From: a virus | DNA length: 64,000 nucleotides | Virus record (IMG/VR): IMGVR_UViG_3300009128_000002 | Reading direction: 5' to 3' (one strand) | Shown: piece by piece, positions 3,001 through 53,531 of the stretch | How the letters are laid out: each line of letters starts with the position of its first letter | How positions within the stretch are numbered: the stretch's first letter is position 1 | Made by a program: the position numbers and the translations under genes | The notes under the pieces: model-generated | What the model saw: only the letters and a program-made list of their open reading frames with translations | What the model was told of the DNA's origin: nothing | Databases searched by the model: none

Positions 3001-4164
3001 ATTCGTGGTGGTATTGAAGATATTACACAAGATCCATTAAAATATTACGTATCTGTTGTACTAAACGTATCAGAAGGACTTCATTGGCATAACTTGACTA
3101 TTGAATGGAATCCAAACGACGAAACATTGCCTCAACAAACTGGCGGTGCTGTTTATGTGACTAGAGTTGTAACGACTCCAGAAGTATTAACGTCAGACCC
3201 ACAAACGTCTATTGATACTAGTTCTACCGAGTTGAATCCAATCGTAGAGACTCTTACTGATACACCAAATGTAGGAGACACCACTGAAATTACTAAGTTC
3301 TTAGATAACGTAACTACAACAACTACTGTTACTACAACGGTTGTTACTACTGTTACTACTGAAACTTACTATTCAGATGGTACTATGGAAACTGTTGTTG
3401 GTAACCCACAGACTACTACTGAACAAGATACTTCTTCTACAACAGAACAAGTTGAAGATATGGCAGAACGTCAAACTAGAATTAATGGTATATTACAATC
3501 AAACAATGCCCCTATAATTTGGATTCAAGGAACGTTTATTGACGGTGAAGGTACACATGACCACTTATTATACACAGGTTGTACTTTGGATACGGTTGGT
3601 CCATTCTCAGGTAGAATGTGTGAACCTATTACTGTTGGACAGGCAAATGAGTTGATTAATGCACAAGATGTGAATTATGGAATTATTTTCTACGATTCAC
3701 CAAATGGTGCGGATAGTCACTATCACGGATATACAATTAAGTTTAATCCATACATAGGAACAGATGGTGAGTTTGTAGTTGAACCATTAAACCAATATGA
3801 CCAAATACCAGGCACAGGAACTACTATACATAAGTTCTTATTGACTGGTGGTTTCCATGACCATGACTATTGGTTGAGTGTTGCAGAATACACACAACTT
3901 GTTACTGGATCTAACATAACGACTCAACAAAGGGATACAATTCACGCACATTTATATACACACGACGTTACAATTGGTTATTCTGGTGGTCAATATAATT
4001 TATTAAATCAAACTAATAACCTTGATGGTCATAACTTGATTTCATATGTTGGTTCATTAGCTAGTGGTGGACAATGGTCAATTAGTACACAAGGTTCTGG
4101 TCTTGGTGACCATATTCATACAACTATTGTTGATGAAACAAACGTGTGGCCAACAAGTATTTAA
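1..4164 (+). CDS. Large structural protein in the baseplate gp7 position (5' partial); glucose/sorbosone dehydrogenase-like beta-propeller followed by His-rich (HxH) repeat modules and a Thr-rich stretch
   Basis: Frame 1 is open from base 1, so the true start is probably upstream. GSDH-family motifs: ERGVLGLCFHPQF, HNGGELVFGPDGMLYIGLGDGG, YAYGFRNPWRFSF, DVGQ..EEIN...GGNYGW. Lies immediately upstream of gp8. Confidence 0.7.
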   Translation, partial: VDSLGTDTDIVVVEAFPSSVQTDTVAIVDQSGIIKLMNENDGTKTTFMDLTSLQHTIGLGPFANYDERGVLGLCFHPQFDTNGKFYVYYMTEQGGGTGAWGFPLSTTVISEFVTDADKLTCTDLSTERNLFTIPQPDFNHNGGELVFGPDGMLYIGLGDGGSAGDTSSMEGHGGHGVYGNAQNPTNLLGTILRVDVTEDTVNSMPYTIPSDNPFINSIYKEGQPEATSFRPEIYAYGFRNPWRFSFAQDGKLWCADVGQDKFEEINIVEAGGNYGWRVMEAYHEYEEDQTIIDQIAIDLGHTNTFDYLTSLKEPIHEYSHGTGISILGGFVYKGSITELQGKYIFGDWSTTWTGTSGHLYTLSENFDGNSAHFNVLPNAINGSTHSHTVDLTGAHVQFLKDNPGSPVVQIQSDTVHSEFYLHTFTIIWSSENQEFVLIGQTNPEGHDVLEFVEYGTDLTYDRTPLSIWDPTTEIVDLTTMGESILTMGETNDGEIIFTTRTGIDTFQGSGVGNTSMYKITDSYNSEDIPTANNQIPSTETAHIHGYEVTYDEENLFQAVEVSDIEMQNYDAFWPIWSWNDPASHIHPVNSAWSGETDTQTLLGSSAGWYYNEDEEQWMPYDIGADTPWAPPVEEDTSYTYIETAPSVAILGANEYGENTHIHYFDSSVLDTYGTNQGRLSTPLTRLQAEELANGVVNEVTIYSSISDSGSHLHYHEFKVLWNPATQQFLAQEVGEYRDLMGTGEWTIILDEQKNHEHTLTVNGITTNLGWNGTPLFTAPDVTLGLAHDWDNLEGNKPDHLHSFNGTDLDTIGVNAGRISEALTDEQTTDLINGDVESVMLYSSIANGDHYHGIRVTYDDVGLAFIAEDVEQWVSEDGAQFQSLTPRTHAHTTEISNQLSINGFNQELNSNDLPVFASPGYPYPGGTHPHFHNGTVVGPFAWNNEIDYADGLSVQNAMDLINGVVEEVIIYDSIEGAHFHDYTVKYDDVENKFYCTNSITWIRGGIEDITQDPLKYYVSVVLNVSEGLHWHNLTIEWNPNDETLPQQTGGAVYVTRVVTTPEVLTSDPQTSIDTSSTELNPIVETLTDTPNVGDTTEITKFLDNVTTTTTVTTTVVTTVTTETYYSDGTMETVVGNPQTTTEQDTSSTTEQVEDMAERQTRINGILQSNNAPIIWIQGTFIDGEGTHDHLLYTGCTLDTVGPFSGRMCEPITVGQANELINAQDVNYGIIFYDSPNGADSHYHGYTIKFNPYIGTDGEFVVEPLNQYDQIPGTGTTIHKFLLTGGFHDHDYWLSVAEYTQLVTGSNITTQQRDTIHAHLYTHDVTIGYSGGQYNLLNQTNNLDGHNLISYVGSLASGGQWSISTQGSGLGDHIHTTIVDETNVWPTSI

Positions 4165-47799: not shown

Positions 47800-49278
47800 A
47801 TGAGTGATATAGTAGTACACATCAAAGATGATGTATTTTTAAATGTAGAATGTGAGTCAGGTATTGGACATGAATTATCCGATTTCTTTACATTTGAAGT
47901 ACCTGGCTATAAATTTATGCCAGCATATCGTGCTAGAGCATGGGACGGTAAAATACGTTTGTTCAATGTATTTGGTGGTGAGGTTTATGTAGGTCTTTTA
48001 CCCTATATTATTGAGTTTGCAAAACGACGTGAATATACACTAGAATACCCTAAAAAACACATTATTCAAACCCTTAAATCCACTGAGGACTTCGTTAAGG
48101 GGTTAAATCCCCACGTTAATTCGTCCCCTATATTACCATACGAGTATCAAATAAAAGCCATTAATCACGCAATTAACAACGATAGGGCACTTTTACTATC
48201 ACCAACTTCATCTGGTAAGTCGTTTATGATATATGGGTTAACACAATATTACCGTAAAGAACAAGACCGTAAAATTCTTATTATTGTACCTACAACATCA
48301 CTTGTTGAACAACTATACAAAGACTTTGCTGATTATGCTTCTGAACTAGACCCTACGTTTTCTGACGACAACGTTCATAGAATCTATTCAGGCAAAGAAA
48401 AAGAAACTGATAAACAAATCGTAATCACAACGTGGCAATCTATTTACAAATTAAAGAAACCATTCTTTGAACAATTTGGTTGTGTTATTGGTGATGAAGC
48501 ACATAACTTCAAAGCAAAATCATTAACGTCTATTTTAACTAAGATGACAGATTGTAAATATAAGTTTGGTTTTACTGGTACACTTGATGGTACAACTACG
48601 CATAAATTAGTGCTTGAGGGATTGTTTGGTGCTGTTAAAAAAGTTATCACAACGAAACAATTAATGGACGATGAAACAATTACAAAATTACATATTGAAG
48701 CAATCATGTTGAAATATAAAGATGATGAACGCAAATTTGTAAAACAATTAACATACCAAGAAGAAATTGATTGGTTGATTGACCACCCTAAACGAAATAA
48801 ATTTATTTGTGACTTGTCTTTGAGTAGAACTAAAAACACATTAGTGTTATTTCAATTCGTAGAAAAGCACGGAAAGAAGTTATATGAATATCTTAAAAAG
48901 AAAGAACCAGAACGACCAATATTTTTCGTATCGGGAAACGTTGGAGTCGATGTTCGTGAGGAAATACGAGCAATCACCGAGAGTAGTACAAATGCTATTA
49001 TCGTCGCTTCATATGGGACTTATTCTACTGGTATCAATATTCGCAATCTTCATAACATTATTTTTGCTCATCCTAGTAAATCCCGTATTAGGAATTTACA
49101 ATCGGTTGGTAGAGGTTTACGAAAATCTGAAGGAAAGGAAGTAGCAACGTTATTTGATTTGAGTGACGATTTGTCTTGGAAGAAACACAAAAACTTTTCA
49201 TTGAAACATTTCATTGAAAGGGTAAAAATTTATAACACAGAAAAATTTGATTACAAACTAAGGAGCATTAAATTATGA
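47800..49278 (+). CDS. uvsW: SF2 helicase UvsW
   Basis: WDGKIRLF, PTSSGKS, DEAH, FTGT, QSVGRGLR. Confidence 0.96.
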   Translation: MSDIVVHIKDDVFLNVECESGIGHELSDFFTFEVPGYKFMPAYRARAWDGKIRLFNVFGGEVYVGLLPYIIEFAKRREYTLEYPKKHIIQTLKSTEDFVKGLNPHVNSSPILPYEYQIKAINHAINNDRALLLSPTSSGKSFMIYGLTQYYRKEQDRKILIIVPTTSLVEQLYKDFADYASELDPTFSDDNVHRIYSGKEKETDKQIVITTWQSIYKLKKPFFEQFGCVIGDEAHNFKAKSLTSILTKMTDCKYKFGFTGTLDGTTTHKLVLEGLFGAVKKVITTKQLMDDETITKLHIEAIMLKYKDDERKFVKQLTYQEEIDWLIDHPKRNKFICDLSLSRTKNTLVLFQFVEKHGKKLYEYLKKKEPERPIFFVSGNVGVDVREEIRAITESSTNAIIVASYGTYSTGINIRNLHNIIFAHPSKSRIRNLQSVGRGLRKSEGKEVATLFDLSDDLSWKKHKNFSLKHFIERVKIYNTEKFDYKLRSIKL

Positions 49279-49577
49279 ATATATCAGTAGTACATATGAA
49301 ACATACAGGCACAGAAGTTATTTGTGACCTAATTGAAATGAATGAAGAAAATATGGCAATCACTATCAAAGACCCACAGACGATTGGTGTAGTATCCCAC
49401 GATGACCAGGGCGCACAATTAGGATTTACACCATTTTTAATGAGTTGTAAGGACAATATTATACATTTAGCACTTCAAGACATTTTATTCATTGCAGAAG
49501 CAAACCCACAAATCGCAGAACAATATCAAAGTATGTTTTCTCCAATTGATCTACCAAGTCAGAAAATAATCACATAA
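49275..49577 (+). CDS. Conserved hypothetical protein (Sm-like fold candidate)
   Basis: K.TG.EVIC.L N-terminus; usual position downstream of uvsW. Confidence 0.65.
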   Translation: MNISVVHMKHTGTEVICDLIEMNEENMAITIKDPQTIGVVSHDDQGAQLGFTPFLMSCKDNIIHLALQDILFIAEANPQIAEQYQSMFSPIDLPSQKIIT

Positions 49578-49582
49578 ATCGC

Positions 49583-49636
49583 TTGACTTTTGTATAAGTA
49601 TAGTGTATAATATATTGAAAATTACACATATAAATA
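49583..49636 (+). promoter_or_regulatory. Sigma70 promoter plus late promoter firing into a non-coding interval
   Basis: TTGACT(49583)-17 nt-TATAAT(49606) with TG extension; TATAAATA at 49629-49636; no annotated + strand ORF before 50203. Confidence 0.8.
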
Positions 49637-49640
49637 CAAA

Positions 49641-49880
49641 TTCTGCCTAGAACGTGAAAACTAGGATAGTAGCGAAAGTGAAGTGAGCAGACTATAATAT
49701 CTTAAACGTAATTAGATTGAGGTCTGTAATTTGATGCCAACGTGTAATGGCTAAATAATTAAAATAATCGTGTCAGGACTCTCACCACATAATGGTATCA
49801 TATAGTCCAGTAGAGATGGGTGAATTGACATTCAGTGGCAAATAGGAATCCGTAACCTATCTCTAGGGATTATAGTGTGT
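49641..49880 (+). ncRNA. Candidate structured non-coding RNA (family not recognised)
   Basis: Stems cctag/ctagg, actataat/attatagt (49691/49869), tagagatggg/cctatctcta (49811/49856), ggact/agtcc, gcca/tggc, tgaat/attca; directly downstream of two promoters. Confidence 0.45.
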
Positions 49881-49900
49881 ATAGAAGTTAACTTCAAGAT

Positions 49901-50131
49901 ACTAGAAGAAAATATAGATTAAGAAAATGAAGACGGTCTTGCGAAGCAAGACCCGAAAACACGTAACGAAGTGAAGTGTTTTCGATTGGTGTAGTCGATG
50001 TAATTTTAAACTACATTAAGCTACTCCAGTGACCTGAAGTGTATCAAATGGTTCTTCAATCTACATATGGACACTTCGTGCCCATATGTGGGTTACTTCG
50101 TAACCCTGTCTTCATTTTATTTAATTCTAGT
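49901..50131. other. Symmetric multi-hairpin DNA element (candidate replication origin / ssDNA signal)
   Basis: Closing inverted repeat aaaatgaagac/gtcttcatttt enclosing two c-GAA-g hairpins, a central AT-loop stem and two c-TTC-g hairpins. Confidence 0.5.
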
Positions 50132-50138
50132 TACTTGC

Positions 50139-50167
50139 TAGACATATAGTCATTTCTATGTTATAAT
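50139..50167 (+). promoter_or_regulatory. Sigma70-type promoter of gp55
   Basis: TAGACA-17 nt-TATAAT with TG extension. Confidence 0.7.
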
Positions 50168-50202
50168 TAATCTATTAAAACTACATTAATAAAGGATATA
50201 CA

Positions 50203-50814
50203 GTGTCAAAAGAAATTAAAACACCAGTCGATAAGGATAATAAAAATCATTACATTAATAATAAGGATTTCTTAGCGGCTTTAATCGAATATCAAGCAGA
50301 TATTAAAGATAAAGAAGAAAGAGGTTTACCAAAACCTTATGTAACTGATTATATTGCTAGGTGTTTTCTTCAAATTGCTCAACGTCTTTCTTTTAGACCT
50401 AATTTTATTAACTACACTTATAAAGATGATATGATTAGTGATGGGTTAGAAAATTGTTTAGCATATATGCATAATTTCAATCCAGAAAAATCTGATAATC
50501 CTTTTGCATATTTTACACAAATTATTTACTATGCATTCCTTAGAAGAATTCAAAAAGAGAAAAAACAACAGTATGTGAAGTACAAGTATTTTGATACTGC
50601 AGGTGGTTTTGAGCAAATGGACGAATTACAAGAACACGACAAAGAATCATTTGACTTTATTAATGATAAAGGGTCTGTAGATTTTCATATTCACATTAAA
50701 GAATTTATTGACGATATGGAAAAGAAAGAAGCAGAGAAAAAAGCAAAAAGGGAAGCGAAGATTAAAGAAAAAGAAATGAAGCAAAATAATTTATCATTCT
50801 TTATGGGTGTGTAA
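50203..50814 (+). CDS. gp55: Late-transcription sigma factor gp55
   Basis: HYINNKDF, RPNFINYTY.DDMISDG.ENC, NPFAYFTQI.YYAFLRRI.KEKKQ; GTG start. Confidence 0.96.
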   Translation: MSKEIKTPVDKDNKNHYINNKDFLAALIEYQADIKDKEERGLPKPYVTDYIARCFLQIAQRLSFRPNFINYTYKDDMISDGLENCLAYMHNFNPEKSDNPFAYFTQIIYYAFLRRIQKEKKQQYVKYKYFDTAGGFEQMDELQEHDKESFDFINDKGSVDFHIHIKEFIDDMEKKEAEKKAKREAKIKEKEMKQNNLSFFMGV

Positions 50815-51861: not shown

Positions 51862-53531
51862 TACATTTTACTAATGTTAAGTGGAAGAATTTTCTTTCAA
51901 CAGGTAATAAGTTTTCTGAAATAATTTTAGATGATACTAAAACTACATTAATGATTGGTACTAATGGTGCAGGTAAATCTACTATGATGGATGCAATTAG
52001 TTTTGGTTTGTTTGGTAAACCATTTAGAAAAATTAAACTAGGTCAGTTGGTTAATTCTATTAATAGAAAAAACTGTATGGTTGAGTTGGACTTTAAGACA
52101 GGTGGTAAAGAATATAAAATTAAACGTGGTCTAAAACCTGCAAAGTTCGAAATATACGTAGATGGTGTTATGCAAGACCAAGATGCGGCCGCTAAAGACA
52201 GTCAAGAATTCCTTGAAAGATATGTATTAAAGATGAATGAAAAATCATTCAGACAAATTGTTGTATTGGGTAGTGGTTCATTTGTTCCTTTTATGAGATT
52301 AAAGGCTGGTGAAAGACGTTCTATTATTGAAGAATTGTTAGATATTCAAATCTTTGGTGTTATGAATGATTTGGTTAAAGAACGTGTTTCAGAAAATAAA
52401 AACGATTTAAAAGACATTACACATAAAATAGAATTATTACACCAACATATTGAGTTGCAAGAGGAACATTTACATAAGTTAAATGAAGATAAGCATATTT
52501 TAATTGATAAGAAAAAGGTGTTTATTGATACGTGTAATGAAGATATTGTTAAATTGGAAAATGAAATAACTGAGTTAAAGGTTGCAACAAGTAATTTTGA
52601 AAAGGTTAAACGTGATAAGAATTCATTTAATAATTTTCAAACCACATTTAATAATAAAATAGAAACAATTAATAAACAACTTAGACTTATTATTACAAAC
52701 TCATCTTGTCCTGCTTGTGGTCAGGAAATTGATAAAAACCATATGGATGAAATGGGTGAAAGTTTAACTACTAAACGTGAGGGTATTGAAAAGGGGTTAG
52801 AAGAAGTTACTGCAAAGTTAACAGAAACCACAAAAACATTAGATCAAATACAGACGGATTTACAAAGTATTGTTAATAAACAAAACCAAATAACAAATCT
52901 TAATGATACTTGTACACGTGTAAATAATGAAATTTCTGAAACATTAAATGAAGTTGTTGAGGTGGTTGATAATAAAGACCTACAGGAAAAGAAAGTTGAA
53001 ATAGATCAACACCACGATACAAAATATGAATTGCAAGAGGAAAAACACGATTTAAATACTGTGCAAGAATTATTGAAGGATAGTGGTATTAAAACTGTTG
53101 TTATTAAAAACTATTTACCACTAATTAATCAATTAATTAATAAGTACCTATCTTCGCTTAATTTTTATATTAACTTTAATCTTGATGAAAATTTCAATGA
53201 AACTATTAAATCACGTGGACGTGATGAATTTGCATATGGTTCATTTTCTGAAGGTGAAAAGTTAAGAATTGACCTTGCATTGTTATTTACTTGGAGGGAA
53301 ATTGCCAAGTTGAAATCTTCAGTATCTACAAACCTTTTAATACTTGATGAAATTTTCGATAGTTCTTTAGATAACACTGGTATTGAAGATTTTCTTGGTA
53401 TCTTAAATGCACTTGGTAGCGAGGTTAATGCATTTGTTATATCACACAAAGGACAACAGATTATAGACAAGTTTGGTAGGGTGATAAAAATAACAAAAGA
53501 CAAGAATTTTAGTAAAATTTCTGATAATTAA
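51858..53531 (+). CDS. gp46: Recombination ATPase subunit gp46 (Rad50/SbcC-like)
   Basis: GTNGAGKS, CPAC zinc hook, FSEGEK, LDEIFD. Confidence 0.96.
   Translation: MIHFTNVKWKNFLSTGNKFSEIILDDTKTTLMIGTNGAGKSTMMDAISFGLFGKPFRKIKLGQLVNSINRKNCMVELDFKTGGKEYKIKRGLKPAKFEIYVDGVMQDQDAAAKDSQEFLERYVLKMNEKSFRQIVVLGSGSFVPFMRLKAGERRSIIEELLDIQIFGVMNDLVKERVSENKNDLKDITHKIELLHQHIELQEEHLHKLNEDKHILIDKKKVFIDTCNEDIVKLENEITELKVATSNFEKVKRDKNSFNNFQTTFNNKIETINKQLRLIITNSSCPACGQEIDKNHMDEMGESLTTKREGIEKGLEEVTAKLTETTKTLDQIQTDLQSIVNKQNQITNLNDTCTRVNNEISETLNEVVEVVDNKDLQEKKVEIDQHHDTKYELQEEKHDLNTVQELLKDSGIKTVVIKNYLPLINQLINKYLSSLNFYINFNLDENFNETIKSRGRDEFAYGSFSEGEKLRIDLALLFTWREIAKLKSSVSTNLLILDEIFDSSLDNTGIEDFLGILNALGSEVNAFVISHKGQQIIDKFGRVIKITKDKNFSKISDN

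Follow-up and report, generated by a model that had tools for sequence, protein, structure and literature searches.

We identified a conserved, single-copy cluster of DNA mini-hairpins in the non-coding gap between uvsW and gp55 of a T4-like phage, in which hairpins with C-GNA-G triloops are read on the plus strand at the left and on the minus strand at the right (49901–50131 of the window, by which we mean the whole stretch of 64,000 nt that was analysed). For such a strand-polar cluster, a signal in single-stranded DNA (a replication start site, for example) is a better fit than an RNA element of the ordinary kind. A role as replication origin is the best single explanation we can offer, put forward as a candidate only and with somewhat less than an even chance of being correct. 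An initial annotation, made from the letters of the window, had described the hairpins and interpreted them as a bidirectional origin; its observation is confirmed here and extended to a conserved family feature, and its interpretation is partly supported.

The window comes from a 90-kb IMG/VR record that is about 50% complete. Locally, the genes are arranged in the order gp23, a tail-tube/gp3-like gene, uvsY, uvsW (47800–49278), a 100-aa ORF (49275–49577, plus strand), a non-coding gap of 625 nt, gp55 (50203–50814), gp47, and gp46. Cultured relatives, namely Pelagibacter phage HTVC008M and cyanophages, are distant (protein identity at most 56% for gp55 and at most about 50% for gp23). The hairpin cluster is absent from HTVC008M and S-PM2, and the intergenic region has no blastn match among cultured phages. 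The product of the 100-aa ORF is predicted to have an Sm/LSm-like fold: its AlphaFold model (pLDDT 63.5) is most similar to PDB 3BY7 (E-value 1e-4), a marine-metagenome protein described as 'Sm/LSm-like', with LSm proteins next, and the ORF has a weak Pfam Sm_like match. The same ORF family also follows uvsW in S-PM2 and HTVC008M, both of which are without the structured RNA and hairpins described below. The gap opens with a sigma70-type promoter on the plus strand (TTGACT-17-TATAAT, 49583–49611, 11 of 12 matches), and 3' of it lies TATAAATA, the T4 late-promoter consensus (49629–49636, plus strand); both are kept in the alignment of the closest relatives. At its other end, gp55 is preceded by the promoter TAGACA-17-TATAAT (50139–50167, plus strand). 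All relatives have a promoter with 10–12 of 12 matches at this place, ending 53–120 nt past the last right hairpin and before gp55.

All stems that had been annotated are present in the sequence at their coordinates. An A-rich spacer (49866–49934, GC 0.27–0.28), which carries the left arms of two outer inverted repeats, leads into hairpin H1 (49935–49953, plus strand), with a perfect 8-bp stem and a C-GAA-G triloop that includes the motif GCGAAGC. H2 (49954–49984, plus strand) abuts H1, is capped by the same triloop, and has A·G and G·A mismatches on the plus strand. The variable centre (49985–50062) contains a local stem at about 49987–50028 and the motif TTAAACTACATT at 50006–50017. H4 (50063–50089) and H5 (50090–50106, a perfect 7-bp stem) follow on the right; both have a TTC loop on the plus strand that reads C-GAA-G on the minus strand, and the A50071/C50081 mismatch of H4 becomes a G-T pair there. 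DNA folding of 49901–50131 yielded a minimum-free-energy structure of five stems closed by the outer repeat, with z-scores of −8.6 (plus strand) and −7.9 (minus strand) and none of 200 shuffles folding as well; RNA folds over 546 nt of the gap gave z-scores of −6.3 and −6.5. No other C-GAA-G hairpin with at least 7 pairs exists in the 64 kb.

The outer inverted repeats pair aaaatgaagac (49924–49934) with gtcttcatttt (50108–50118) and actagaa (49901–49907) with ttctagt (50125–50131), so that both right arms lie within 50108–50131. As a bracket around the stems, the 11-bp repeat stands in the window, where it exceeds shuffles (p = 0.005), yet it is specific to this genome and is not conserved in relatives. 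Neither long-range pairing across the cluster, left half with right half, nor conservation of a closing helix could be upheld: the arms are complementary in some lineages only, and the outer repeat is window-specific. Reading through the loci by eye, rather than by formal count, gave no sign of loop-loop covariation between the two halves. Two short sequences are overrepresented in the window. TWAAACTACAYT occurs three times (0.22 expected), at 50006–50017 in the centre, at 50176–50187 in the gp55 leader, and at 51938–51949 in early gp46 (plus strand), and its centre copy is conserved in the groups of L010, L029, L032, and L051. RCGAAGY, a heptamer, is found 30 times where 10.7 are expected (0 of 100 shuffles), for the most part within genes and without hairpins.

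A gp55-based scan of IMG/VR yielded 80 loci, and in about 58 related loci a hairpin of the same kind lies between the gp55 promoter and the conserved RNA gene. In blastn, alignment extends over just the left 290 nt of the gap; the cluster region is not alignable, and its design is nevertheless the same. In the family hairpin, an outer stem is followed by a tandem G·A/A·G mismatch (context Y-GA-R) and then by an inner stem, with a C-GNA-G triloop at the tip. A strict descriptor (outer stem of at least 3 pairs, tandem GA opposite GA, inner stem of 2–8 pairs, C-GNA-G triloop) gave about 105 matches in 442 kb of relatives' loci, all of them 93–610 nt upstream of gp55 and with plus-strand matches invariably upstream of minus-strand matches, and no match in 50 shuffles of the phage's own 90-kb genome; because the sequences are phylogenetically related, these and the following counts overstate the number of independent events. 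In a looser scan, in which the type of mismatch was not a selection criterion, 28 distinct C-GNA-G hairpins at relative positions 0.15–0.51 had 66 G·A/A·G against 4 C·T mismatches, and 16 C-TNC-G hairpins at relative positions 0.41–0.69 had 0 against 25. In all 22 loci that have both kinds, the GNA hairpins are without exception located to the left of the TNC hairpins, so the polarity noticed in the window, with GAA on the plus strand at the left and on the minus strand at the right, is conserved. The loop, too, is conserved in many diverged relatives: all 38 family hairpins have C-G as their closing pair, and the reading strand has solely GAA, GTA, GCA, or GGA, with variation limited to the middle base. 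The G·A steps are framed as Y-GA-R in 74 of 76 cases; the stems show free covariation.

The right hairpins obey the same rule on the other strand. Their inner stems covary and their minus-strand loops are GAA, GTA, or GGA. In the largest group the right hairpin is unlike the left ones of the same genome in sequence, and the rule is kept despite the stem changes; one example there reads ctcGA-ggacc-GTA-ggtcc-GAgag on the minus strand. Since the stems of the right arm covary and its loops change only in the middle base, this arm is selected in its minus-strand reading and is more than a copy of the left arm. The counterpart of H1 in relatives is a plus-strand GA/GNA hairpin. The window's own copy keeps the triloops and lacks the tandem G·A, and is thus a degenerate variant. 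The core 11-mer is confined to the cluster locus in contigs of 50–124 kb. The centre is 21–157 nt long in relatives, with recent perfect tandem duplications in several lineages. In L059, a more distant relative, the cluster (660–780) has a GCA loop and a perfect 59-nt central repeat in two copies, and the 370 nt upstream (217–590) are a different, GC-richer non-coding stretch; the cluster of L060 likewise follows different upstream sequence. L009, L040, and L041 have kept the two left hairpins (about 650 nt upstream of gp55), and about 400 nt of unrelated sequence replace the right half.

The 240 nt to the left of the cluster are, judging from profile matches and covariation, a genuine structured RNA on the plus strand. 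This RNA of about 230–240 nt (49640–49865, in wider limits 49634–49870) sits behind the early-type promoter and the TATAAATA promoter and starts 350 nt upstream of the cluster, which it adjoins as a neighbour and not as a part. Its profile matches L002–L058 and L077 with E-values from 1e-24 to 1e-67, in one copy per genome. Compensatory changes are found at 31 of 41 predicted pairs, and G·U exceeds A·C by 76 to 2, with wobble pairs making up 7.2% of all pairs. It has an AGUA/GAA (sarcin-ricin-like) internal loop and is capped by GAAA or variable loops. Rfam scans of the region with gathering and E-value thresholds matched no family, the only hit being a chance miRNA match (E = 9), and an Rfam scan of L059 returned nothing. 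As no terminator lies between the RNA gene and the cluster, a plus-strand transcript very probably crosses the hairpins.

The substitution pattern of the cluster differs from that of this neighbour. The cluster stems contain 3 G·T against 12 A·C, and wobble pairs account for 0.7% of pairs compared with 7.2% in the adjacent RNA (Fisher p = 6e-9), wobble pairs being too few within the cluster for assigning a strand by G·T versus A·C. The initial annotation had named, as evidence against its own reading, a stable plus-strand RNA whose covariation favours one strand; the signature of such an RNA is found in the neighbouring 240 nt and is absent from the cluster. A minus-strand reading as RNA would need its own promoter, and no antisense sigma70 promoter is conserved in the cluster-bearing clade (9 of 12 matches only, at inconsistent places, or none), which counts against an RNA reading. 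By nearest-neighbour energies, the GNA strand is the preferred one in all 38 hairpins when RNA parameters are used and in 32 of the 38 when DNA parameters are used, a preference that is partly circular because the hairpins were picked by motif; the left hairpins of the plus strand would fold well as RNA too. When closed by C-G, GNA triloops are documented to be far less stable in RNA than in DNA, and single-stranded DNA initiation signals contain them (PMC13037366, PMC8567376), as the annotation had noted for triloops of the d(GCGAAGC) type. Mini-hairpins of the GCGNAGC type melt at about 76 °C as DNA and far lower as RNA, bind single-strand-binding protein poorly, and occur in G4 oric, RSF1010 ssiA (CCGAAGG), and N4 promoters (PMC13037366). 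From the conserved polarity, the lack of an RNA signature, and the DNA-stable triloops, we interpret the hairpins as signals that act in single-stranded DNA, on each of the two strands.

These data bear directly on the alternative that survives best, according to which the cluster is the 3' domain of the plus-strand non-coding RNA, or an RNA insulator or terminator before gp55, perhaps with binding sites for the Sm-like protein. We regard it as rather unlikely. Its attraction lies in the setting, with a strong promoter and a real structured RNA directly upstream and no terminator before the cluster, an A-rich spacer, an adjacent Sm-like gene, and co-occurrence of RNA and cluster in one clade. 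H5 together with a T-rich tract has a terminator-like score on the plus strand, and the RNA fold of the gap has a z-score of −6.3. Read on the plus strand, however, the right hairpins conserve tandem C·U/U·C mismatches and loops of the form UNC, exactly complementary to the left motif, and a single RNA would hardly account for such a pattern. The G·U enrichment of a true RNA is missing from the cluster, C-G-closed triloops are stable loops of the DNA type (PMC13037366), and a closing helix is not conserved. Moreover, the clusters of L059 and L060 follow different upstream sequence, most relatives have no U-tract past the last hairpin, and the Sm-like gene is also present in phages without the element.

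For the replication origin, which we prefer, our proposal is a single-copy, conserved element that would work as DNA, in the form of single-stranded hairpins on both strands. Two abutting mini-hairpins would fold on the plus strand at the left and one or two on the minus strand at the right, each capped by a C-GNA-G triloop, beneath which most relatives have a sheared tandem G·A step. They may act as a pair of strand-specific initiation signals for the loading of primase and/or helicase at a phage origin, in the manner of ssiA/ssiB of RSF1010 oriV or of the hairpins of the G4 complementary-strand origin. Stable hairpins of this kind would stay clear of single-strand-binding protein, marking the site of primosome assembly, and transcription from the upstream promoter would help to open the region. 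Priming 3' of each hairpin could direct synthesis outward both ways; by a second route, two 5'–3' helicases loaded on opposite strands could pass each other. To judge from the geometry of the hairpins, both routes would suit a bidirectional origin. The fuller version of this proposal is a new kind of T4-like origin, in which a promoter-driven structured RNA is joined to a two-fold symmetric pair of single-stranded DNA mini-hairpins that loads the primosome on both strands and starts both forks at once. We consider this version possible though doubtful. If it is true, an origin with two-strand loading would differ from the one-direction, two-step R-loop origins of T4.

The position of the element among genes of replication and recombination (uvsY, uvsW, gp47, gp46) counts for an origin. 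GC skew shows no inflection at the cluster and is positive throughout the site, and the centre, whose length falls to 21 nt in some relatives, is not A+T-rich in this genome (GC 0.32–0.37, 28th–57th percentile). Conserved iterons were not found, the central repeats being lineage-specific recent duplications, and a search of the 90-kb record (about 50% complete) for primase genes of the AEP, Prim-Pol, or Toprim type found none. Also counted against an origin are the plus-strand transcript that very probably runs through the cluster, the Sm-like gene next door, the left-only loci L009, L040, and L041, and the window's own copy without tandem G·A.

The hairpins could instead be a structure-specific DNA target other than an origin, either a cruciform or hairpin site whose cleavage or binding would seed recombination-dependent replication (gp46/gp47, endonuclease VII) or a recombination or packaging signal. 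The cluster is single-copy, palindromic, and located beside uvsY, uvsW, gp47, and gp46. Its hypervariable centre with fresh tandem duplications, and the homogenisation of one arm to the other in L015 and L055, suggest frequent strand exchange or slippage. A simple cruciform target requires neither strand polarity nor conserved G·A steps, though, and no site is known to be required for T4-type packaging. We think such a target improbable.

Slightly more improbable still is that each of two convergent transcripts, one sense and one antisense, contains GNA hairpins that act as RNA, be it as protective 3' structures, as processing sites, or for antisense control of uvsW and the Sm-like gene. This idea draws on relatives without the element, in which an antisense promoter stands back to back with the gp55 promoter (12 of 12 matches in HTVC008M, 11 of 12 in S-PM2, and 11–12 of 12 in L061–L078), and on a weak candidate in the window (ATGACT-18-TAGAAT, 50153–50124). 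In the cluster-bearing clade, no antisense promoter is conserved and several loci have none with at least 9 of 12 matches; antisense promoter and hairpins occur together in 0 of the 160 loci scanned. The antisense promoter found outside this clade is a near-perfect one of the sigma70 type, directed into the Sm-like gene and uvsW in HTVC008M, in S-PM2, and in many uncultured relatives. It is located upstream of gp55 in L061–L078, and on the minus strand at 3849–3877 in L082 and at 3900–3928 in L083. That phages without the element have a strong antisense promoter in the gap suggests that some non-coding transcription device is generally located between uvsW and gp55; such a device fits either transcription-activated initiation or antisense control. 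Finally, it is very unlikely that the cluster is functionless, its palindromes made and renewed by template switching near a promoter, as in PeSLs, and its mirror image a by-product of inverted duplication: the right hairpins do lie upstream of an early promoter as PeSLs do (PMC4122927) and the arms are identical in some lineages, but PeSLs are multi-copy, the cluster is single-copy and syntenic, and its motif features outlast complete turnover of the stems, even where the arms differ.

The origins of T4 itself have no motif in common. For a large group of uncultured marine T4-like phages, a hairpin signal that is conserved and strand-polar would provide a sequence-defined and testable origin candidate. 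Whatever its function, the cluster would also exemplify, in nature, selection for DNA-type mini-hairpins with sheared G·A on both strands of a double-stranded DNA genome, and the hairpin motif can be searched for in other genomes.

Among known systems, a retron msr-msd was rejected, as the 90-kb record has no RVT_1 match and the neighbours are uvsW, the Sm-like gene, and gp55. A search for a T7-like virion RNA polymerase, as used at N4-type hairpin promoters (PF00940), gave no match in the record, and none in the control genomes either. ColE1-type origins have a structured pre-primer RNA II and primosome assembly hairpins on both strands. The gap resembles them in its long, structured, promoter-driven RNA followed by what we propose to be single-stranded DNA hairpin signals, a likeness of plan that involves no sequence relation. 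T4 oriF and oriG, which are R-loop origins, require about 100 bp in which an A+T-rich DUE directly follows a middle promoter, and they have neither a shared motif nor hairpins (PMC3016281). The strong upstream promoter, the non-coding setting, the nearby uvsY and uvsW, and the phage family are common to oriF/oriG and the gap (PMC3016281), whereas here the promoter (49583–49611) is followed not by an A+T-rich unwinding element but by the folded 240-nt RNA, which lies between it and a cluster whose centre is not A+T-rich. With PeSLs the cluster shares a stem-loop just upstream of a sigma70-type early promoter (PMC4122927). The PeSLs of T4-type phages occur in many copies per genome and in hyperplastic regions, without a mirrored partner or a G·A/GNA rule; the cluster is found at one locus per 50–124 kb contig, and the window has no other such hairpin.

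Very stable, G·A-closed single-stranded DNA loops that bind single-strand-binding protein poorly and mark a primase start would connect the cluster with the G4 origin and with GCGNAGC/GCGNNAGC mini-hairpins (PMC13037366). H1 has the exact GCGAAGC, and the family fits the GCGNAGC form in part, the second pair being A-T in many members. Most cluster loops are ACGAAGT or GCGAAGC inside longer stems, unlike the G4 mini-hairpins, and G4 is a single-stranded DNA phage with its signal on one strand and in one orientation. The nearest known design is the ssiA/ssiB pair of RSF1010 oriV, inverted repeats on complementary strands that become accessible when the duplex is unwound and that direct priming at a place 3' of the hairpin (PMC8567376, PMC6925257). 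The phage hairpins differ from it in coming as abutting pairs, mostly with tandem G·A, and in belonging to a T4-like phage replicon; a RepB'-type primase, RepC, and conserved iterons were not found in this record (about 50% complete). The two systems agree in being single-copy, in having a C-GAA-G mini-hairpin, and in placing hairpins as inverted repeats on the two complementary strands (PMC8567376, PMC13037366, PMC6925257), a likeness drawn from published descriptions of that placement. The complementary-strand arrangement holds in 22 of 22 loci, with plus-strand motifs left of minus-strand motifs, and the working form proposed for the cluster, single-stranded DNA exposed once the origin opens, is that of the RSF1010 signals.
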